Shown here piece after piece: positions 7,770 to 16,933 of a stretch of 64,000 nucleotides of DNA (position 1 is its first letter; each line of letters begins with the position of its first letter). The notes below the pieces were generated by a model, which had not been told where the DNA came from, made no database searches, and saw nothing but the letters and a program-made list of their open reading frames with translations. The stretch is from positions 337,400-401,399 of the forward strand of contig CANLEH010000003.1 of assembly GCA_947489665.1 (NCBI GenBank), in the 5' to 3' direction. A program made the translations under genes and the position numbers. Source of the stretch: an uncultured Roseicyclus sp. (GTDB lineage: Bacteria; Pseudomonadota; Alphaproteobacteria; Rhodobacterales; Rhodobacteraceae).

Positions 7770-7997
7770 TCAAGAACAGCAGGACACTCCGTTCTGGATC
7801 GGCGGGCACGCAACATCCCCGTAGGAACAATAAACGCAGCAATCCCCCTCGCGAGGGCGCAGCACAACGCGGCAGGACGTGCATTGGTAAAACCATTGGC
7901 AAGCATCCGTCGGCATCGTCTCCGCCTCAGCATGCCCGCATTCAGGGCAGGTGAGCGTCGACACCAAGGTCAACTCCGTCGCGTCTTTCGCCACCAT
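7770..7997 (-). CDS. GDCCVxC-domain small cysteine-rich protein
   Basis: 75-aa ORF containing CPECGH, CQWFYQCTSC and the literal GDCCVYC motif. It overlaps the end of a MerF-like ORF upstream. Confidence 0.8.
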   Translation of the reverse strand: MVAKDATELTLVSTLTCPECGHAEAETMPTDACQWFYQCTSCRVVLRPREGDCCVYCSYGDVACPPIQNGVSCCS

Positions 7998-8196
7998 GCG
8001 TACCCCGTCAGGAGAAGGAACCCGGCCAGCAGCGGCAACAGGATCGCGTCATTGTACAGGACTCCAATCAACCCAGTCATCCCAAGTGCGCCAAGCACGA
8101 TCGGCAAAAGCGGCGTGAAACAACACAGCGCGGCAAGGATTGACCCGACAATGCCTACGATCAGCAGTTTGTTGTTCAGCGCTCTCGCTCCAGCAT
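7970..8196 (-). pseudogene. MerF-like small membrane transporter ORF with no usable start: apparent 1-nt frameshift after codon 5-6, or a non-canonical start
   Basis: My minus-strand translation gives ...ARALNNKLLIVGIVGSILAALCCFTPLLPIVLGALGMTGLIGVLYNDAILLPLLAGFLLLTGYAWWRKTRRS*, with two TM helices and a vicinal CC as in MerF. That frame has no ATG/GTG/TTG between the upstream TGA and the first TM. ATG 8196 opens MLERER and then hits TGA. Deleting one base would give MLEREALNNKLL... Confidence 0.45.
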
Positions 8197-8409
8197 GGAT
8201 GTTGAATGGATCATAAGTGCAGCGGCAACAGAAAGATACTAACGCGCGACCCCGTCACCCAATCCGCACGTCCTTGCCCGCAAACCTACCTGCGACTGGC
8301 CTCGCCAAAACCGTCCTTTCGAAGGCACCCAGCAGGTCAATATCTGGCAGAAGACCTGGCCCGGTCCGAAGCGCCTTGAAACAACCGGGCTGAAACGGCG
8401 AACAGGCGA

Positions 8410-9036
8410 TCAGAACGTGATGGCTATACCCAATTCGAGCGTTTCCAGGTCGAAGTCGGGCAAAGGTATCGGCCCATCATCATAGAACTCGTAGACCGTC
8501 CACTGGGCTCCGACGAGCAGGTTGTCGAACACCTGAAAATCTGCACCGACCCCGAAAAACATGCCTTGTCGGTTAGTAAAAGTGGTTGGGAATTCGATGT
8601 ACGCTGATGCTGTGCCTGCCGTTCCGTAAGCCAGGATGCGGCCGAAGTCGTATCCCACCTCCGCGCCGAGCCGGTTGATCCTAACGTCTGGCCCTCCGCC
8701 AGTCACGATGACGCCTGGCGCCACAGTGTCTCTGGGCAAAGCGCCGGACAAGGATGCAACCTCAAGACCCACAACAATGTCACCAAAGTCGTGGCGTATG
8801 CCGCCAAAGATGCCAGAGAGATCGCCTTCAAAATCCGCCACGAAACCAAACGTTTCGAGGGATTCGTCAAGATGTGCATTTGCGCTGTACGTGACACCGA
8901 CATAGGCACCTGACCAACTGTTGTCCTCAACCGTGGTAGGTGCCGCGGCAACCGGAGCTGCAGGCGCAACTCCCCCGGCGAAGGCTGGCCCAATCGAAAC
9001 TGCGACGGCCAAAAAGAATGCAAGGCAAGTGCGCAC
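8410..9036 (-). CDS. Outer-membrane beta-barrel protein (OmpA-like / OMP_b-brl family)
   Basis: Track ORF 8410..9114. I prefer GTG 9036, preceded by AGGAGA at 6 nt spacing, giving signal peptide VRTCLAFFLAVAVSIGPAFA. The body has an alternating beta-strand pattern and ends in F (ELGIAITF). Confidence 0.7.
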   Translation of the reverse strand: MRTCLAFFLAVAVSIGPAFAGGVAPAAPVAAAPTTVEDNSWSGAYVGVTYSANAHLDESLETFGFVADFEGDLSGIFGGIRHDFGDIVVGLEVASLSGALPRDTVAPGVIVTGGGPDVRINRLGAEVGYDFGRILAYGTAGTASAYIEFPTTFTNRQGMFFGVGADFQVFDNLLVGAQWTVYEFYDDGPIPLPDFDLETLELGIAITF

Positions 9037-9262
9037 GGTAAGTCTCCTGCTAAGTACGGCATTAGTAACCGAATTCACATCGGTTGGCGCGGGACCCCAA
9101 AGCGTTGACCTCATCTATAGTGGCTTACACGCGACATCTGTGCGGATTGTCTAAAAGATGGCCGCGCCCGTTATGCCGCCTCGGCGGTTTTTCCACCCCC
9201 TTGCTTCACACCCCCCGCCCTGTATCTTCCCGCGCAAACACTTCACCAAAAGGGTCTTTTTT

Positions 9263-10441
9263 ATGCGCCGTTTCCTCGTTCCGCTGCTTCTTTCCCTAAC
9301 CCTCGGCACCACCGCGACCGCCCAACAATGTGGCGGGGATTTCGGGCAATTCGTCCAGGGCCTCCGCGCCGAAGCGGCTGAGCGCGGCCACAGCCAAGAG
9401 GCCATCGACGGCTTCTTCCGCCATGCGTCCTACTACCAACGCGCGCTCGATGCCGACCGCAGGCAAGGCATCTTCACCGTCCCCTTTACTGATTTCGCAC
9501 GCCGCCTGATCAGCCAAAACCGAATGGATGCGGGCCGCCGCAACGCCGACCGTCAAGCCGCCACCTTCAACGCCATCCAGGAACGCTTCGGCGTCTCCCG
9601 CGGCATCCTTCTGGCCTTCTGGGCGTTCGAGACCGACTACGGCGCCTTCCAGGGAGACTACAACACGCTCGACAGCCTCGTGACCCTTGCCCACGATTGC
9701 CGCCGCCCCGAACTCTTCCGCCCCGAGGTCTTCGGCGCGCTGGAACTCTTCGAGCAGGGCGATTTCGACCCCGTGAACACCGTCGGCGCTTGGGCGGGTG
9801 AAATCGGCATGGTCCAGATGCTCCCCGAAGACATCGTGAACTTCGGCATCGACGGCGATGGCGACGGGCAGGTCAATCTGCAAACCTCCGCCCCCGACGC
9901 GCTGCTTTCCGGCGCCAATATCCTCTCCTCCCTCGGCTGGCGCGCCAACGAACCCTGGCTCGTCGAAGTCACCCTGCCCACCGATCTCGACTGGTACCAG
10001 ACCGGCGTCCACACCACCCGCTCCGTGGCGGAGTGGGAGGCTGACGGCGTCCGCGCCCGTGCCGGTGGCACCCTGCCCATGCCCAACACCCAGGCCTCCA
10101 TCGTCATCCCCCAGGGCCGCAACGGCCCCGCCTTCATCGCCTACCCGAACTTCAACGTCCTGTTCGAGTGGAACCAGTCCTTCACCTACGTCCTGACCGC
10201 CGCCTATTTCGCCACCCGGCTTGAAGGTGCGCCGGTCTTCGACGCCCGCAACCCCGACGCGGGCCTGAACGGCGACCAGATGCGCCGCCTGCAAGAACTC
10301 CTCGCCGCCCGCGGCCATGACGTGGGCCGCATCGACGGCATCCTCGGCGTCGGCACCCGCGCCGCCGTGCGTGAGGAACAGCGCCGCCTCGGCCTCCCCG
10401 CCGACGCCTGGCCCACCACCGCGCTCCTGAACGCGCTTTAA
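9263..10441 (+). CDS. Lytic murein transglycosylase (MltB/SLT_2 type) with C-terminal peptidoglycan-binding domain
   Basis: Track ORF 9158..10441 trimmed to ATG 9263 (MRRFLVPLLLSLTLGTTATA signal). It has the block ILLAFWAFETDYG and a C-terminal GHDVGRIDGILGVGTRAAV PG_binding_1-like motif. Confidence 0.8.
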   Translation: MRRFLVPLLLSLTLGTTATAQQCGGDFGQFVQGLRAEAAERGHSQEAIDGFFRHASYYQRALDADRRQGIFTVPFTDFARRLISQNRMDAGRRNADRQAATFNAIQERFGVSRGILLAFWAFETDYGAFQGDYNTLDSLVTLAHDCRRPELFRPEVFGALELFEQGDFDPVNTVGAWAGEIGMVQMLPEDIVNFGIDGDGDGQVNLQTSAPDALLSGANILSSLGWRANEPWLVEVTLPTDLDWYQTGVHTTRSVAEWEADGVRARAGGTLPMPNTQASIVIPQGRNGPAFIAYPNFNVLFEWNQSFTYVLTAAYFATRLEGAPVFDARNPDAGLNGDQMRRLQELLAARGHDVGRIDGILGVGTRAAVREEQRRLGLPADAWPTTALLNAL

Positions 10442-10502: not shown

Positions 10503-11336
10503 ATGCCCGAAATCCACCAAATCCCACTGAACGACATCGACGAATACGCCCTCCCCCGCGACCGCGACGCCCTCGATCAGACCGACCTCTCCGACCTCAC
10601 CCTCTCCATCGCCGCCCACGGCCTCCGCATGCCGATCGAAGTCTTCCCCGCAACCGGCCCCAAACCCTACGGCCTCATCTCCGGCTTCCGCCGCCTCTCC
10701 GCCCACCGCGAGCTCACCCTCGACACCATCCCCGCCTTCATCCGCCAACCCGCCGACATCCCCTCAGCCCTCGCCGCCATGATCGAGGAGAATGAGATCC
10801 GCGCCGACATCACCCCGTGGGAGCGCGCCAAAATCGTCCTCACCGCCATCGACCACGGCCATTTCGACACCATCGACGCGGCCCTCCCCCGCCTCTACCC
10901 CACCTACGACCGGTTCCGCCAAACCCGCCTCCGCGCCGTGGCCGAGGTCGTGGCCCATTTCGGCGAGTCCACTCTGACCGACCCACGCGCCCTCTCCCAA
11001 CGCCAACTCACCCGCCTCGCCACCAACCTGCGCGCGGGCATGGGCGACACCATGCTGGTCGCCCTCCAAGAGTCCTCCGACAAGTCCCCCGCCACCCAAT
11101 GGAGCCTCTTGGCTGCCATCTGTGAGGACGCAGAGGCCGAGGCCAAAGCCTCCAGACTCCAATACAAGGAAGGCCGCCCCCGGCATCACGTCCGCGTCCA
11201 AAACGACCTAACCGTCCGCCGAGAGCGCACGAAAGATGGCTGGACCCTGCGGTTCACGGGGAGGACGGCGTGCGGTCCGCTGATGGAGGACATCATGGAT
11301 TACGTCGAAGACACCTTCGGCCACCGCCAACGCTGA
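10503..11336 (+). CDS. ParB/Srx N-terminal-domain protein (orphan ParB-like, nuclease/CTPase fold)
   Basis: 277-aa ORF. GLRMPIEVF...YGLISGFRRLSAH matches the ParB box (GxRRxxA). IEENEIRADITPWERAKIV matches the ENxxRxDLxPxE block. No parA lies next to it. Confidence 0.7.
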   Translation: MPEIHQIPLNDIDEYALPRDRDALDQTDLSDLTLSIAAHGLRMPIEVFPATGPKPYGLISGFRRLSAHRELTLDTIPAFIRQPADIPSALAAMIEENEIRADITPWERAKIVLTAIDHGHFDTIDAALPRLYPTYDRFRQTRLRAVAEVVAHFGESTLTDPRALSQRQLTRLATNLRAGMGDTMLVALQESSDKSPATQWSLLAAICEDAEAEAKASRLQYKEGRPRHHVRVQNDLTVRRERTKDGWTLRFTGRTACGPLMEDIMDYVEDTFGHRQR

Positions 11337-11346
11337 CGGCTGGCAC

Positions 11347-11401
11347 CCGTAGGGTGGGTGAAACCCACCATTCCGAACCGTAGGGCGGGACTAGTCCCGC
11401 C
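11347..11401 (+). repeat. Two tandem REP-like hairpin elements sharing a CCGTAGGG leader
   Basis: CCGTAGGGTGGGTgaaACCCACC spans 11347..11369 and CCGTAGGGCGGGACtaGTCCCGCC spans 11378..11401. Each is a perfect 7-8 bp stem. A third GC hairpin lies at 11425..11455 (GGGCAG ... GCGCGCaaGCGCGC ... CTGCCC). Confidence 0.7.
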
Positions 11402-11612
11402 GCCCCGGCCAGTTCAACACACCCGGGCAGAATCAAGCGCGCAAGCGCGCTGCCCATCGCCGGGCCGCCCCCCGGCACGGCGATTTGGCTGATCTTGGTA
11501 CTCCGCTTGTTCTGTGGGACGTGCTTGGCTACCATTAAGCGCCTTGAAACGACCGTCGGATCGCCGCACTGCGGCCCGTCGATGGGCCTGTACTTACAAT
11601 CAATAGAGATGA

Positions 11613-13208
11613 CTATTCGATATCAATTGATATCCCTTCCCCATTCTCCATCGCCCGCCACCAAGTCGTTAGATTTCCGTCCATGATTATCGCGCTCGGA
11701 GCGGTGGCTTCCAAACGGATTGATTCAAGTTCTTGGGTCAACGTTTTTTCAAGCGAACTAATGGGCTGTTTGAATGCAAAAGACTTTACGATCTTTGGAT
11801 TGCCAAAATAAAATGTCTGACGCAATCTGTCTCTCTTGCGGGCTTTGTGGTCGATTTGGTAAATCGCACCCACGCTCCAAGAGCCAATTTTCGTACAAGA
11901 ATAGCCGATCAAAAGTTCAAACTCATCCACGTCACTCTTGAATTCACCGTCAAAACGCAACGACCCTGATTGCATAATGGCAGTTGCCAGGTGCATATCG
12001 GCAACGTTTTTCTGAAATTCCGAGAAACTAGTCTGTACTTCGCTAGATTTTTGGGGCCCGAGAAGGTCGCAAATGTGCGCTCCAACTTTGGCATGCTGAT
12101 AAATCCAGTCACCGGGAAGCGGCGGATCGCTGACCTCGCCACCAAACAATTTTCCGTGTTCTAAGTGTACTTCAAAACGTAGCGGCTTCTTGCTCGCATA
12201 CGCGAGCATTGAAACCAATCCGATCTTTTGGTCGAAGGGGCCGTACCCATCTAGGTCAAGTGAGAACCGAATGTCGTTTACACTCTGATTTGGAGATGTG
12301 AGAATATCGATGCCGCCCGCATCGATACGGATGCGAAAGTTCGGGTCCGTTGGGTGAATCAGTTTCGGCACGCGGCAAATCGCTGAAATATCAAAAAAGC
12401 GGCCGTTTTCATCTAGAATTTTCAGTACTGCGGGCATGGGTTCTGATGTGATCTTCATCCGACCATCATCACCGAAGCGATTCTGTACCGGTACTTCAAT
12501 CCCAAAGCGCTGATCAAATAATTGGAAGTTGGCTACTGGTATATCTTCTGAAAGCCCAAGTTCGTGTAGTACGACCTCCTCAGCGGACGCAGTGTTTGGG
12601 ATGGAGAAAACTCCTCGATGTGTGAATTCACCGTAGCCAACGGTGTCGATCAATTCGATCTTTCTTGCAGAGTACTTTCCGGCCCCATGTTTTTGGATGA
12701 CCTCATATAGCCAGTCACTTGGGCATACTTCGATAGCATCTGCCTGCGAAAATGATAGCGACCAAGTTGATTTATGGAGGGGGGCTCCGCCCCCCTTTTG
12801 TGAGTGCATTCGCGCACGTTTTAGTATGGCTTCAATTTCTTCGCGCCAAATATGACGACCATAAAGAACGGGTCCTTCTTTCATCCTCTGATGATGAAAT
12901 AGAAAAATGAATGTGGGACTAGGAGATTTTGCAGCCTTCACCGCGTTGCTGAGTTTAAGTCGGGTCTTGGGCTGTTCCGCGCTAGTGGTCTTGATTTGGG
13001 CAAAGCATTGAAACAAATGATTGGCCAGATCGCTAGGCAATTGCTGATTCGAAGGCGGTCTGAGATCAATAACATGATCCCAGCCGTTCTCGTCGTCAGA
13101 GGCTTTATTTACTACAGCGTCGATTCCTGCGGCTGGACTTTGGCACCGCTCGGAAAATAAAGCTTCGCCGTGTCGTCCCTGCCTGGATGCGTTGTCTGCA
13201 GTCAACAA
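11613..13208 (-). CDS. Orphan 531-aa protein on a low-GC islet: N-terminal DUF4365-like PD-(D/E)xK nuclease-fold domain plus about 400 aa of unknown function
   Basis: Long uninterrupted ORF in an AT-richer stretch with a TTG start at 13208. N-terminal landmarks are GRHGEALF, DENGWDHVIDL, FAQIKTT and PTFIFLF. I recognise no other motif: no Walker A, no TM segment, no repeats. Confidence 0.75.
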   Translation of the reverse strand: MLTADNASRQGRHGEALFSERCQSPAAGIDAVVNKASDDENGWDHVIDLRPPSNQQLPSDLANHLFQCFAQIKTTSAEQPKTRLKLSNAVKAAKSPSPTFIFLFHHQRMKEGPVLYGRHIWREEIEAILKRARMHSQKGGGAPLHKSTWSLSFSQADAIEVCPSDWLYEVIQKHGAGKYSARKIELIDTVGYGEFTHRGVFSIPNTASAEEVVLHELGLSEDIPVANFQLFDQRFGIEVPVQNRFGDDGRMKITSEPMPAVLKILDENGRFFDISAICRVPKLIHPTDPNFRIRIDAGGIDILTSPNQSVNDIRFSLDLDGYGPFDQKIGLVSMLAYASKKPLRFEVHLEHGKLFGGEVSDPPLPGDWIYQHAKVGAHICDLLGPQKSSEVQTSFSEFQKNVADMHLATAIMQSGSLRFDGEFKSDVDEFELLIGYSCTKIGSWSVGAIYQIDHKARKRDRLRQTFYFGNPKIVKSFAFKQPISSLEKTLTQELESIRLEATAPSAIIMDGNLTTWWRAMENGEGISIDIE

Positions 13209-13276
13209 GTCTAGAATTTCCCTAACAAAACCTTAACGCCAAACCTAAAACCCAACAATCCCAATCACTTAACCCC

Positions 13277-13296
13277 TTTGTGCACGCGTGCACAAA
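13277..13296. repeat. 20-bp perfect palindrome TTTGTGCACGCGTGCACAAA just 3' of the smc stop, at the right edge of the islet
   Basis: Read directly. smc stops at 13301..13303. It may act as a terminator stem for smc, but no clean U-run follows. Confidence 0.6.
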
Positions 13297-13300
13297 CCCC

Positions 13301-16300
13301 TCACGCCACCAGGGCCTCGGCCTTTTTCAGGTCCACCGACACCAGCTGGCTCACCCCCTGCTCGCCCATCGTCACCCCGAACAGCCGGTCCATGCGGGCC
13401 ATCGTGACCGCGTGGTGCGTGATCGTCAGGAACCGTGTATCCGTCTGGCGGGTCATCTCGTCGAGCATGTCGCAGAACCGGTTCACGTTGGCGTCGTCCA
13501 GCGGCGCGTCGACCTCGTCCAGCACACAGATCGGCGCCGGGTTCGCCAGGAACACCCCAAAGATCAGCGCCAGCGCCGTCAACGTCTGCTCGCCCCCGGA
13601 AAGCAGCGAAAGCGTCGAGAGTTTCTTGCCCGGCGGTTGGCACAGGATCTCCAGCCCCGCTTCCAGCGGATCGTCCGATTCCACCAGCACCAGCCGCGCT
13701 TCCCCGCCCCCAAAGAGGTGCGTGAACAGTTTCGAGAAGTTCGCGTTCACCTCGTCGAACGCCTTCAACAACCGCTCCCGCCCTTCCTTGTTCAGCGAGG
13801 CAATCCCCGTTCGCAGCTTCGCAATCGCCGCTTCCAGGTCCTCTTTCTCGGTCAGAAGCCCGTCATGCTCCTCCCGAACCTCCCGCGCATCCTCTTCCGC
13901 CCGCAGGTTCACCGCGCCCAAAGCGTCCCGCTGACGCCGTAGACGCATAACATCCGCCTCAATCCGGTCGAGCGACGGCAAAGGCTCCGGCAATTCGCCC
14001 AAGGAGTCACGCAAAGCCTCCGGTGACATCTCCGTATCCTCAGCAATCCGCTCAGCCGCCGCCTGCACAGCCTCCGCCGCCGCATCCCGCCGCGCTTCCG
14101 CCGCAGCCCGCCCTTCCCGCGCTTCCGAGGCCGCGCGCTCCGAATCCCGCTCCGCAGCCGTCGCCGCACGCAGGTTCGACTCACCGACAGACAAAGCATC
14201 CGCCGCCGCCGCCTTCCGCGTCTCAGCCTCGGTGATCTGAATTGCCAGAGTTTCCCGCCGCTCCGCGATTTCCCCAGGCTTCTGCTTGGCATCCGCTAGC
14301 GCACCCTCAGCCTCACCGCGCCGCTTCTCAAGCTCGGCAAGCCGCGTTGCTGCATTCGTCAAACGGTTCTGCCAGCTGGTGATCTCCTGCCCGATCTTGG
14401 TGATGCGAGAGACGCGGTCCTCACCATCGCGCTTCACCTCATCAAAGGCGGCGCGTTTGGCCAGCATGGTCATCCGCGCGGCTTCGACGGTGGTTTTCAC
14501 ATCGGCGAGCTTCTGACGCACGGCCTCCAGATCATCCAGCTCGGCCAAAGCGTCCTGCGCCCGAACCAACTCAGCGCGCGCCGTCTCAGCCTCTTCTGCA
14601 TGGCGGGCCGCTGTCAGCCGCAAAGTCTCCAGCTTGCCATCCAGCACACTTTGATCCGCCTCAGCTCGCGCAGCAGCGCGGCTGGCTTGGCTCAACTGCG
14701 TTTCAGCGTCGCGCCGGGCGGTGCGGGCGGCCTTGTCGGCCTCGGTCAGATCCGCGAGGCGCTTCGTGGCGGCTTCGTGTTTTTCAACTTCCGCATCCGC
14801 AGCGGCGCGGGCCTTGCGTTGCTCAGCCTGCAACTCCGTCAAGCGGTTGGCCTGTTCCAGACGGCGCGCTGCCGTCGAAACGGCATCCGCGGCGGCGACG
14901 GCGAACCCATCCCACCGCCAGAGGTCGCCTTCACGGCTGACAAGGCGCTGGCCGGGCTGGAGAAGCGGCTGCAGGCGCGGACCGTCAGCCACATCGATGA
15001 TGCCGATCTGGGAAAGTCGGCGCGAAAGGATTGCCGGTGCGGTGGTGACGTCAGTTGCCGGTTGCGCACCTGTTGGCAGCGGCGCAGCGCCGTCGTAGCC
15101 GGGCAAATCGGACCAGCCGGAGGCCCCAGGCGTTTCGGCGCGCGCGGCTTTGAGATCGTCGGACAAAGCGGCACCGATTGCGGCCTCAAACCCCGGAGAA
15201 ACGCTAACCTCATCAAGGACTTGGCCGCCATCGCCCCGCTCGCGCTCCAGCACGCGGGACAGCGCGTTGACTTCGGCGTCGAGCGTTCCGGCTTGGCCTT
15301 CGGCCTCGGACCTGGCAGAGCGGGCCTCTGCCTCCGTGGTCTGCGCTTCAGCGCGGGCGGCCTCGGTCGAAAGGAGCGCCTCTTCCGCACGGGCTGCAAG
15401 ATCGGTGGCGGCGGTCAGAGCATCCGCTGCGTCCGTGGCTTCGCGCTTCAACCCCTCGAGACGCGTCGCCGCCTCGGACGCGGCGGCTTTGGCGTTTTCG
15501 GCGTCGGTCTCGTTGCGGGACACCGCTTTTTCAGCTTCGCCAATGCGGCGTTCAATCGCCTGATGGCGGGCCGCCAGTGCAGCGGATTGTTCCGTGAGAT
15601 CAGAGAGTTCCGCCTCCTGCCCTGCAAGAACGGATCGCGCGTCGGTGACTTCATCGCGGGCAAGGGCCAGGCGTTCATCCTGCCCGTCTTGTTGGGCCTG
15701 AAGTTCCACCCGTTCGGTGCGCAAACGCTCCACGGTTTCGGATGCGTCGGCGTTCAGCGTCTCCTCCCGCTCGCGGTCCTTGTTGATTTGCGCGATGCGG
15801 GCGGAGAGGGTTTCAACGGCGGCTTCGGCGCGATCGGCCTCGGCCTGCAGCGAGTCGCGTTCGACCATGAGACGTTGGAGGATCGCGGCGGCGACGGCGT
15901 CTTCTTCGCGGAGGGGCGGCAGCGCCTCTTCCGCGGCTTCGCGGGCCTTCACGGCGTCGCGTGCGGCGGCTTCGGCTTGAGCGGCAGTGGCCAGGCCTGC
16001 ACGCAAAGCCTCTTCCGCGCGGAGGCGGGCTGCGTCGGCGTCGCGCCAGCGCAGGAACAGGAATAGGCCCTCGGCGATGCGCAGCTCGGACCCGATTTCG
16101 CGGTAACGGGCCGCCTGTTTTGCCTGCCTTGCCAATGAGTTAAGCTGCGAGGCGAGTTGTTCGAGCACGTCGTCGATACGGGCGAGATTGGTCTCGGCCG
16201 CTTTCAATTTCAGTTCTGCTTCATGGCGGCGCTGATAGAGGCCGGAGATGCCGGCGGCCTCTTCAAGCACGCGACGGCGCGCCTTGGGGCGGGCGTTGAT

Positions 16301-16756
16301 CAGCTCGGCAATCTGGCCCTGACGGACGAGCGCGGGGCTGTGCGCGCCGGTGGAGGCATCGGCAAAAAGCATCGACACATCGCGCGCGCGGACGTCTTTT
16401 CCGTTGAGTTTATAAGCACTTCCGGCGTCCCGGGTGATGCGGCGGACGATGTCGATTTGGTCTTCATCGTTGAACCCTGCGGGGGCCAGACGGTCCTCGT
16501 TATCGATCTGCAGCGACACCTCGGCAAAGTTGCGGGCGGGGCGCGTGGCGGCACCGCCGAAGATCACGTCTTCCATGCCTGCGCCGCGCATCGCAGTGGG
16601 GCGATTTTCGCCCATCACCCAGCGTAACGCCTCAAGAAGATTGGATTTTCCGCAGCCGTTGGGACCCACAACGCCCGTCAGACCATCGGCAATCACGAGG
16701 TCCGTGGGGTCGACGAAGGATTTGAATCCATTGAGCCTGAGCTTGGTAAACCGCAC
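13301..16756 (-). CDS. smc: Chromosome segregation protein SMC
   Basis: Track ORF 13301..16840. I prefer GTG 16756 (VRFTKLRLNGFKSF), the usual SMC N-terminus. It has Walker A GPNGCGKSN, long coiled-coil Ala/Glu/Arg-rich arms, C-terminal LSGGEQ and DEVDAPLD. ATG 16840 would add 28 non-conserved residues. Confidence 0.9.
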   Translation of the reverse strand: MRFTKLRLNGFKSFVDPTDLVIADGLTGVVGPNGCGKSNLLEALRWVMGENRPTAMRGAGMEDVIFGGAATRPARNFAEVSLQIDNEDRLAPAGFNDEDQIDIVRRITRDAGSAYKLNGKDVRARDVSMLFADASTGAHSPALVRQGQIAELINARPKARRRVLEEAAGISGLYQRRHEAELKLKAAETNLARIDDVLEQLASQLNSLARQAKQAARYREIGSELRIAEGLFLFLRWRDADAARLRAEEALRAGLATAAQAEAAARDAVKAREAAEEALPPLREEDAVAAAILQRLMVERDSLQAEADRAEAAVETLSARIAQINKDREREETLNADASETVERLRTERVELQAQQDGQDERLALARDEVTDARSVLAGQEAELSDLTEQSAALAARHQAIERRIGEAEKAVSRNETDAENAKAAASEAATRLEGLKREATDAADALTAATDLAARAEEALLSTEAARAEAQTTEAEARSARSEAEGQAGTLDAEVNALSRVLERERGDGGQVLDEVSVSPGFEAAIGAALSDDLKAARAETPGASGWSDLPGYDGAAPLPTGAQPATDVTTAPAILSRRLSQIGIIDVADGPRLQPLLQPGQRLVSREGDLWRWDGFAVAAADAVSTAARRLEQANRLTELQAEQRKARAAADAEVEKHEAATKRLADLTEADKAARTARRDAETQLSQASRAAARAEADQSVLDGKLETLRLTAARHAEEAETARAELVRAQDALAELDDLEAVRQKLADVKTTVEAARMTMLAKRAAFDEVKRDGEDRVSRITKIGQEITSWQNRLTNAATRLAELEKRRGEAEGALADAKQKPGEIAERRETLAIQITEAETRKAAAADALSVGESNLRAATAAERDSERAASEAREGRAAAEARRDAAAEAVQAAAERIAEDTEMSPEALRDSLGELPEPLPSLDRIEADVMRLRRQRDALGAVNLRAEEDAREVREEHDGLLTEKEDLEAAIAKLRTGIASLNKEGRERLLKAFDEVNANFSKLFTHLFGGGEARLVLVESDDPLEAGLEILCQPPGKKLSTLSLLSGGEQTLTALALIFGVFLANPAPICVLDEVDAPLDDANVNRFCDMLDEMTRQTDTRFLTITHHAVTMARMDRLFGVTMGEQGVSQLVSVDLKKAEALVA

Positions 16757-16933
16757 GGGATGCCTGCCTGTATTCTTCGATTCTTGGGTCGGGAGAGTTT
16801 CCGGATCGCTCTGCGGTGAGTCAACAGCGGCACGCTTCATCTCGCGTGTTTCGGCGGGTTATCCCCAAGATATGCGGGTCGTGGGCAAATATATGATAGC
16901 GTCGACCCAGTGGCCCAAGCCCGGTGGGAACTG

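Follow-up and report, generated by a model that had tools for sequence, protein, structure and literature searches.

The nearest characterised nuclease to the protein described here is DREN of SPARDA, also called DUF4365, which has an Hjc-like topology with D41 on strand β2 and Q60 and K62 on strand β3 (PMC12205087). Mutations of these three residues abolished the activity of DREN, or impaired it in the case of K62A. The isolated DREN domain of SPARDA is an inactive monomer and cleaves DNA, non-specifically, only as a tetramer. The DUF4365 motif has been described as DxGxD...QxK, and DUF4365 is also the N-terminal of the two domains of EAT16, a toxin of Photorhabdus associated with an extracellular contractile injection system (eCIS), in which single mutations at three of the four conserved residues D42, D46, Q66 and K68 abolished toxicity (PMC11297309). 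A third example comes from Vibrio chromosomal integrons, whose single-protein anti-phage system Divona likewise joins an N-terminal DUF4365-type nuclease to an unrelated C-terminal domain. Here, we analyzed a stretch of 64,000 nucleotides from an uncultured Roseicyclus sp. (contig CANLEH010000003.1 of assembly GCA_947489665.1, positions 337,400 to 401,399; hereafter the window), which contains a standalone open reading frame (ORF) encoding a predicted DREN/DUF4365-type head followed by a body of about 390 residues (Table 1).

Our results suggest that this gene probably serves in defence and, on balance, that it encodes a standalone nuclease combining sensor and effector in a single protein. 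What appears to be new is that, in a large and uncharacterised family, a known effector domain is combined with an unrecognised trigger module.

The N-terminal head resembles the DREN nuclease

A first-pass annotation of the window, made from the sequence alone, had proposed that the ORF starts with a DUF4365-like PD-(D/E)xK domain, based on the motifs GRHGEALF, DENGWDHVIDL, FAQIKTT, PTFIFLF and LYGRHIW. All of them were found, at residues 11-18, 39-49, 69-75, 98-104 and 115-121, respectively, and the proposed domain is supported by the PF14280 matches of relatives, by fold matches to SPARDA and Hjc and by an invariant D...QxK. The one landmark that needed correction is the spacing of the acidic motif, which reads D-x-x-G-x-D rather than D-x-G-x-D. 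Conservation was computed over 101 homologues of about 20% identity, among which D39, G42, D44, Q71 and K73 are invariant, while E15, a putative metal-site residue, occupies the position of the helix-1 glutamate of Hjc-type nucleases in the PD-(D/E)xK superfamily. Judged from this alignment, the conserved motifs lie far beyond chance, and purifying selection has been strict on the putative catalytic set (E15, D44, Q71 and K73, together with D39).

An AlphaFold model of the full protein, based on a 30-sequence alignment, had a mean predicted local distance difference test (pLDDT) score of 87.6, with block means in the head mostly of 79-91, falling to 68 for residues 51-60 and 42 for residues 1-10. 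The predicted head consists of a helix (4-22), four strands (30-35, 45-50, 66-75 and 81-85), a second helix (86-94), two further strands (99-105 and 114-119) and a last helix (122-137). D44 opens β2, and Q71 and K73 lie on β3, as do the catalytic residues of DREN. The head is also basic, with an isoelectric point (pI) of 9.1 and a family median of 9.06.

In a Foldseek search of the PDB with the full model, the top eight matches were SPARDA complexes (E between 3.4e-06 and 4.5e-04, maximum probability 1.0), whose alignments span about 580 columns, followed by Hjc resolvases (probability 0.9-0.97) and then by EcoRV, HincII and SwaI. The structure prediction and fold search that the first-pass annotation had suggested for the head thus retrieved SPARDA, Hjc and type II restriction enzymes. 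The SPARDA matches disappeared once the head was removed from the model; the matched SPARDA chains are therefore probably DREN-APAZ, and in these models it is the head that drives the match. The archaeal Holliday-junction resolvases Hjc and Hje share the PD-(D/E)xK topology (TM-score up to 0.53, target-normalised), but they are only about 125-140 aa long, carry ExK rather than QxK and are housekeeping enzymes.

Profile searches, which had also been suggested, gave a divided answer. The window protein matched nothing in Pfam, and neither it nor its 29 closest homologues matched PF14280 at E <= 10. On the other hand, of the 90 distant relatives that were scanned, all full-length and about 20% identical, 31 matched PF14280 over residues ~8-116 (best E = 8.1e-08), including the signature of acidic residue, glycine and D...QxK. 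Only one of these, P0060, exceeded the gathering cutoff (31.7 versus 24.3 bits, residues 9-116). Since the matching relatives also match the profile of the query family over the full length at E <= 1e-53, membership of DUF4365 holds by transitive homology and not by direct score. The only match of the window protein itself in the profile scans, to SGT1 (E = 0.088), was regarded as noise, and PDB sequence searches with the protein, two family profiles and the most DUF4365-like relative returned chance matches to AnkJ, OSBP-related protein 11 and polyporopepsin. Weak matches to PDC-M02A of PADLOC were found in 17 of the 90 relatives (best E = 2.5e-05, residues ~3-113). However, the PDC-M02A models, of 165-188 positions, come from a candidate system of several genes; neither the body nor the window protein matched them, and the family has no conserved partner. 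Membership of PDC-M02 was thus rejected, the matches of the relatives reflecting the shared nuclease domain only. Taken together, the conservation and the structural model make it very probable that residues 1-137 are an active DREN-type nuclease.

The body has a conserved but unrecognised fold

Behind the head lie two regions that differ in conservation. Pairwise identity is 37% in the head, 29% in residues 138-237 and 14-21% in residues 238-531. The pLDDT of residues 138-237 was 73-93 in the full model and dropped to 48-67 in a model without the head, and these residues therefore probably pack on the head. Residues 238-531 contain almost no fixed positions; gaps are rare, at 1-2% for residues 238-481 and 13% over the last 50 residues. 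Because gaps are so few up to residue 481 despite an identity of 14-21%, the fold of the body is kept while its sequence diverges. Of the members, 98% have an acidic body (family median pI 5.27, median net charge about -9).

The first-pass annotation had called this part unrecognisable and beta-rich. The former description is right, as neither a sequence-profile match nor a credible fold match in the PDB or BFVD was obtained; the latter is not, as the model is mixed alpha/beta with about 30% helix and 31% strand. A model of the body only (residues 141-531) reached a pLDDT of 84.8 and a predicted template modelling score of 0.74. Searched against the PDB, it gave nothing credible, the best match being LolA3 (E = 6.8e-03, probability 0.11), and BFVD, a viral fold library, gave nothing credible either. 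TtAgo was among the weak matches, with a probability of at most 0.54 over 80 columns. Neither the body-only fold searches nor the Pfam scans revealed an SRA domain, a winged helix or any other fold or Pfam domain for DNA binding. An APAZ-like body, suggested by the SPARDA match of the full model, was rejected, as the body-only model lost all SPARDA matches; this comparison used the whole body against the PDB, and a very remote relationship to APAZ is still compatible with it. A WCX domain was likewise dismissed, its matches in 4 of the 90 relatives (best E = 6.9e-04, P0170 residues 175-208) being too weak and inconsistent. From its fast evolution with few gaps and its acidity we infer that the ~390-aa body may act as a sensor or regulator.

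The protein belongs to a widespread family

An initial homologue search returned 33 full-length homologues of 31-47% identity from Rhodobacterales and Roseibium, all annotated as hypothetical and without a Pfam domain, and the ORF aligns over its full length with 30 homologues. An exhaustive profile search at E <= 0.001 extended the family to 1,915 representatives (clustered at 50% identity); 535 of them had E <= 1e-30. The top 150 representatives are nearly all 500-555 aa long with full-length matches, and nearly all of the family is about 510-530 aa long. The architecture, which had been called unusual, is therefore not rare, with ~1,900 clusters at 50% identity, though it is unnamed as such. 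Some relatives in UniRef and RefSeq already bear the name 'DUF4365 domain-containing protein'. The family ranges from marine Alphaproteobacteria to plasmids or integrative and conjugative elements (ICEs) of Vibrio, Klebsiella and Legionella, and the plasmid relatives align up to residue 237. No relatives were found among 50,697 phage records, the window protein gave nothing relevant in PADLOC, NCBIfam or PHROGs, and the family is absent from PADLOC 2.0. We found no description of it in the searched literature mentioning DUF4365, on PDC-M02 or on standalone DREN systems.

In seven relatives of 449-557 aa (P0113, P0114, P0125, P0130, P0154, P0162 and P0167), the profile match ends at about position 340-440. 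The alignments suggest that in some lineages the last 100-180 residues have been swapped for unrelated sequence, as modular C-terminal variation. Two damaged copies were also observed: one in a Neomegalonema metagenome-assembled genome (MAG) is broken into two ORFs, of 126 and 281 aa (L008, 9998-11573), and one in a Rhodospirillales MAG is truncated and matches residues 9-237 only (L012, 2839-3708). This damage could be real decay or assembly error.

The genomic neighbourhood was surveyed at ~20 loci, a part of the whole family, and a scan of the genome collection found seven loci. At 12 independent loci, the only common gene was the family gene itself; an apparent second shared cluster proved to be an antisense ORF within it. 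No methyltransferase neighbour was seen at the loci examined. No PIWI gene was present in the Pfam-annotated loci L001-L005, and the window gene is flanked by the ParB_N gene and smc. Some distant members have mobile or defence-related surroundings: one has an Upx-like gene and a type IV secretion system (T4SS) next to it, another lies amid a recombinase, AlpA, a TIR/SEFIR gene and an Mrr-nSTAND NTPase, and others are on plasmids of Vibrio, Klebsiella and Legionella, adjoining integrases, ArdA and Tra genes. The first of these, in Alteripontixanthobacter maritimus (L004, 8001-9542, plus strand), adjoins a gene for a 1,238-aa Upx-like protein (PF28173; 4181-7897, minus strand), with QueC, a nucleoside deoxyribosyltransferase and T4SS genes nearby, and this locus looks like an ICE-borne defence cluster.

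The gene occupies a variable defence slot beside smc

In the window, the gene is flanked by a gene with a ParB_N domain (10503-11336, plus strand) and by smc (13301-16840, minus strand). With the ParB_N protein as an anchor, the site was compared among six syntenic genomes, Hasllibacter, Gymnodinialimonas and related taxa. The order of lytic transglycosylase (SLT), ParB_N, slot and smc is conserved, and seven genomes carry seven different cargos in the slot, which spans 11337-13300 in the window and about 7835-10100 in the syntenic loci (L013, L014, L015, L019, L020 and L021). Four of the seven cargos match known defence genes, namely Drt8, AriA/AriAB, HEC-07 and HEC-09 (Table 1). Judged from these contents, the slot is a compact defence hotspot. 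The idea that a nuclease head on a large unknown body could form a single-protein immune system, raised in the first-pass annotation, thereby gains strong positional support from Drt8, AriAB, HEC-07 and HEC-09 in the sister slots. By position, the cargos of L021 and L019 are further candidate defence genes. The window gene showed no kinship with the other cargos.

The cargo of the window is little more than the ORF, extending about 12 bp beyond it upstream and about 25 bp downstream. From junction alignments, the conserved borders were located near positions 11587 and 13220. The other measurable cargos are 1,718-1,855 bp long, and the five delimited cargos have a GC content of 46-51% versus 64-67% in their flanks. 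Neither an integrase nor a tRNA was found in the slot. The ORF itself has a GC content of ~48% versus ~64% in its flanks, and a GC content at third codon positions (GC3) of 0.49 versus 0.74 for smc; the gene is horizontally acquired.

The neighbouring 277-aa ParB_N protein has a ParB N-terminal domain only (PF02195, E = 2e-10), and its gene is conserved beside the lytic transglycosylase gene (SLT_2) across Roseobacter-group genomes. As it lies far from any parA, it is no obvious ParB of chromosome partition.

Table 1 Features of the window gene, its protein and the slot, with the cargos of syntenic genomes (coordinates in the window unless a locus is named)
Feature	Coordinates	Strand	Details
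Standalone ORF with DUF4365/DREN head	11613..13208	minus	531 aa; TTG start; TAG stop at 11613-11615
Predicted DREN/DUF4365-type PD-(D/E)xK head, residues 1-137	12798..13208	minus	AlphaFold model, Foldseek, PF14280 matches of relatives
E15, helix 1	13164..13166	minus	97% conserved in 101 homologues; putative metal-site glutamate
D39-E-N-G42-W43-D44	13077..13094	minus	D39, G42 and D44 invariant (alignment); D44 corresponds to DREN D41
Q71-I-K73, strand β3	12990..12998	minus	Q71 and K73 invariant; correspond to DREN Q60/K62
Helical/beta module, residues 138-237	12498..12797	minus	Moderately conserved; invariant Y179, K183, R234 and F235
Fast-evolving acidic body, residues 238-531	11616..12497	minus	Conserved but unrecognised fold, putative sensor/regulatory (identity, gaps, fold search)
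16-bp perfect palindrome GATATCAATTGATATC	11619..11634	none	Overlaps last codons I-S-I-D-I-E; judged coincidental
Window cargo, DUF4365-headed gene (531 aa)	11583..13222	none	1,640 bp, 48% GC; from junction alignments (three syntenic genomes), border motifs and composition; PADLOC none
ParB_N-side border, conserved and non-coding	11337..11587	none	~250 bp; in all syntenic genomes with any cargo
smc-side border	13221..13300	minus	Hairpin 13277-13296 and G/T-rich low-GC stretch of about 55 bp
L013 cargo			Reverse transcriptase, 517 aa; PADLOC Drt8, E = 2e-145
L014 cargo			ABC-ATPase, 562 aa; PADLOC AriA/AriAB (PARIS-type), E = 2e-22
L015 cargo			536 aa, no Pfam domain; PADLOC HEC-07, E = 1e-178
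L020 cargo			NYN-domain protein of 265 aa (PADLOC HEC-09, E = 8e-19) and 135-aa protein (AbiEi, weak)
L021 cargo	8187-9884 (L021)	plus	565 aa; no Pfam match on record, no PADLOC match
L019 cargo	7883-8515 and 8924-9979 (L019)	both minus	210 aa and 351 aa; no Pfam match on record, no PADLOC match

Slot borders, expression and integrity of the gene

The ParB_N-side border recurs at ~7835-8083 in L013, ~7835-8065 in L014 and ~7844-8128 in L015. In the window, it contains a perfect palindrome, GCGGGACTAGTCCCGC, at 11385-11400, and a direct repeat, CCGTAGGG[T/C]GGG, at 11347 and 11378. It also has a long-range stem, ~24 bp long, which pairs 11452-11468 with 11571-11587 and ends at the start of the cargo. 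The block is near-invariant and thus provides no covariation evidence. It could serve as a non-coding RNA (ncRNA), an array of terminators or a site of recombination. Searches of the slot border identified neither an Rfam family nor a tRNA, and a tRNA, tmRNA or known ncRNA as an integration target was sought and not found, a match to Yfr1 being below threshold. On the other side, a 20-bp palindromic hairpin directly follows the smc stop codon. Since its sequence differs between genomes and yet stays self-complementary through compensatory changes, it is probably the smc terminator. The border elements occur at this chromosomal site only, and the possibility that they travel with the family gene was rejected.

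The TTG at 13208 is the earliest canonical start past an in-frame TAA and is immediately followed by another TTG. The first-pass annotation had described a TTG start with only a weak AGGGA upstream, and had concluded that the gene may be poorly expressed. The start and the AGGGA, 9-10 nt 5' of the TTG, are indeed present, but the conclusion of poor expression was not supported. The AGGG of this putative Shine-Dalgarno sequence consists of the last bases of the conserved G/T-rich flank and does not belong to the cargo. As the cargo has no room for a promoter of its own, the gene is probably expressed from the conserved flank or by smc read-through. Three of the four single-gene cargos with a recorded strand point away from smc, as would fit read-through expression.

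That the ORF ends within a 16-bp perfect palindrome was also correctly noted by that annotation, which took it as a sign that the gene may be partly decayed. The window contains four such palindromes (at 262, 11385, 11619 and 13279) versus 1.5 +/- 1.3 in shuffled sequences; three of them lie within 2 kb around the slot, two being border elements and one lying inside the ORF. The terminal palindrome was kept in none of the nine homologue loci inspected (0/9). With a count near chance and no conservation, a functional role for it was rejected, and we regard GATATCAATTGATATC as a coincidental by-product of the ISIDI codons. The C-terminal peptide ISIDIE, encoded by the palindrome, agrees with the homologues in the alignment, and the homologues align from end to end, which contradicts the idea of decay. 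On the evidence of these alignments, the gene is intact and under constraint.

Weighing the defence reading against its alternatives

Several points weigh against a standalone defence nuclease. Three of the seven slot cargos, including that of the window, match no defence model, and the hotspot argument is one of guilt by association. Relatives in Paracoccus and Roseibium are located amid housekeeping genes and not in defence islands. The window protein is below the thresholds of Pfam and PADLOC, so that its link to DUF4365 is transitive and structural, and its body shows no recognisable sensor, oligomerisation or ligand-binding fold in the PDB or BFVD. Finally, the ORF starts with TTG, and a search upstream of it revealed no promoter-like site.

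Among the alternatives, the one that survives best is a solitary Type IV, or modification-dependent, restriction endonuclease, in which the body would recognise DNA and the protein would cut the invader directly, with neither infection sensing nor cell killing. The solitary gene without a methyltransferase neighbour, the N-terminal PD-(D/E)xK domain and the type II restriction enzymes among the fold matches are all compatible with this explanation, the variable C-terminal region could mirror shifting specificity, and the defence-hotspot position fits equally. However, so consistently acidic a body is unusual for recognition of double-stranded DNA, the body-only searches revealed no SRA, winged-helix or other DNA-binding fold, and DREN, the nearest characterised nuclease, is non-specific and activated by oligomerisation. 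We consider a restriction enzyme unlikely.

A toxin or selfish nuclease, either an injected effector akin to EAT16 or a homing-type endonuclease that spreads its own cargo, is a poorer fit. As unrelated cargos share the slot, it is a feature of the site rather than of the nuclease, and the border elements do not accompany the gene. EAT16 is delivered by an eCIS, whereas the window locus has no such context, and neither a secretion system nor an immunity gene nor an eCIS cluster is a recurrent neighbour of the family; the lack of relatives in the phage records also counts against this explanation. What speaks for it is that the D/D/Q/K residues of the N-terminal DUF4365 of EAT16 are needed for cytotoxicity, that DREN tetramers resemble the homing endonuclease I-Ssp6803I and that the cargo is essentially the ORF alone, at differing sites in different genomes. 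We regard it as improbable.

The protein might also be an orphaned or divergent DREN-APAZ subunit of SPARDA, with its Argonaute encoded elsewhere or itself a relic. In DREN-APAZ (NbaSPARDA, XauSPARDA), likewise, an N-terminal DREN/DUF4365 PD-(D/E)xK nuclease with D...QxK on β2/β3 past an N-terminal helix precedes a larger C-terminal region that is non-catalytic, and SPARDA is the best structural match of the full model, over about 580 columns. In addition, 3 of the 90 relatives weakly match Aga_REase-PNTD1-PNTD2 of PADLOC (best E = 0.019), and the weak TtAgo match of the body points in the same direction. Yet no SPARDA, SPARTA, SPARSA or APAZ chain was present in the top 50 PDB matches of the body alone, which is about 390 aa long versus about 280 aa for APAZ and is not detectably APAZ- or N-L1-L2-like on its own. 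Real DREN-APAZ co-purifies with Argonaute as a stable, tight heterodimer, whereas the window gene has no Argonaute partner in the loci examined and no apparent guide-RNA apparatus, and the family has no conserved neighbour across 12 loci and no PIWI gene in the annotated ones. As it lacks an Argonaute and no APAZ domain could be detected in it, the window protein is outside SPARDA, and an orphaned subunit is very improbable. In Divona, the C-terminal domain is crr6 (PF08847), which no scanned family member matches.

A housekeeping nuclease of DNA repair or recombination, such as an Hjc-like resolvase, would account for the Hjc fold matches (probability 0.9-0.97) and for the location beside smc and the ParB_N gene, but six close relatives carry other cargos in the slot and not this gene, its composition is foreign (GC 48% versus 64%, GC3 0.49 versus 0.74), and its distribution is patchy, including plasmids and ICEs, which leaves this explanation hardly credible. 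A decaying or silent pseudogene is the least credible of all, as the TTG start, weak Shine-Dalgarno sequence, lack of a promoter-like site, private upstream sequence of about 12 bp and disrupted relatives (L008 split, L012 truncated) are outweighed by an uninterrupted 531-aa frame that matches homologues from end to end with every invariant residue present, by the SD-like AGGG that the conserved flank supplies and by the agreement of ISIDIE with the homologues.

A proposed switch and its implications

As a standalone sensor-effector nuclease, the protein may work by an oligomerisation switch, a mechanism that we propose tentatively. The acidic, fast-evolving body would hold the basic head inactive until it meets a cue, which would most likely be a nucleic-acid intermediate or a protein of a phage or plasmid. 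The cue would alter the conformation or oligomeric state of the body, gathering the heads into an active oligomer that would degrade DNA indiscriminately and destroy the invader, and possibly the host genome as well, as in abortive infection. The body would thus stand in for the whole apparatus of Argonaute, APAZ and guide RNA as the trigger. In this way, the protein would resemble other single-protein immune sensors that have a nuclease as their effector. A more general picture, equally speculative, is that in ~1,900 clusters of Alpha- and Gammaproteobacteria the body could be an unseen sensor fold that drives head-to-head oligomerisation independently of Argonaute and guides, and that the slot could be a new, compact and cassette-like type of defence hotspot, in which promoter-less cargos of 1.6-1.9 kb are swapped between fixed and structured borders and expressed from the flanks.

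DREN/DUF4365 has hitherto been characterised chiefly as the Argonaute-guided effector of SPARDA, in which filament assembly unites four heads, and the collateral nuclease activity of SPARDA has been noted as potentially useful for nucleic-acid diagnostics. If the proposed reading is true, the family would present a DREN effector wired to an unrelated trigger module within a single polypeptide. It would offer a tractable one-gene system for studying how DREN activation is controlled and what the body senses. Moreover, the slot between the ParB_N gene and smc would be a natural test bed of swapped cargos, with at least two further uncharacterised ones, and may be mined for immune genes.

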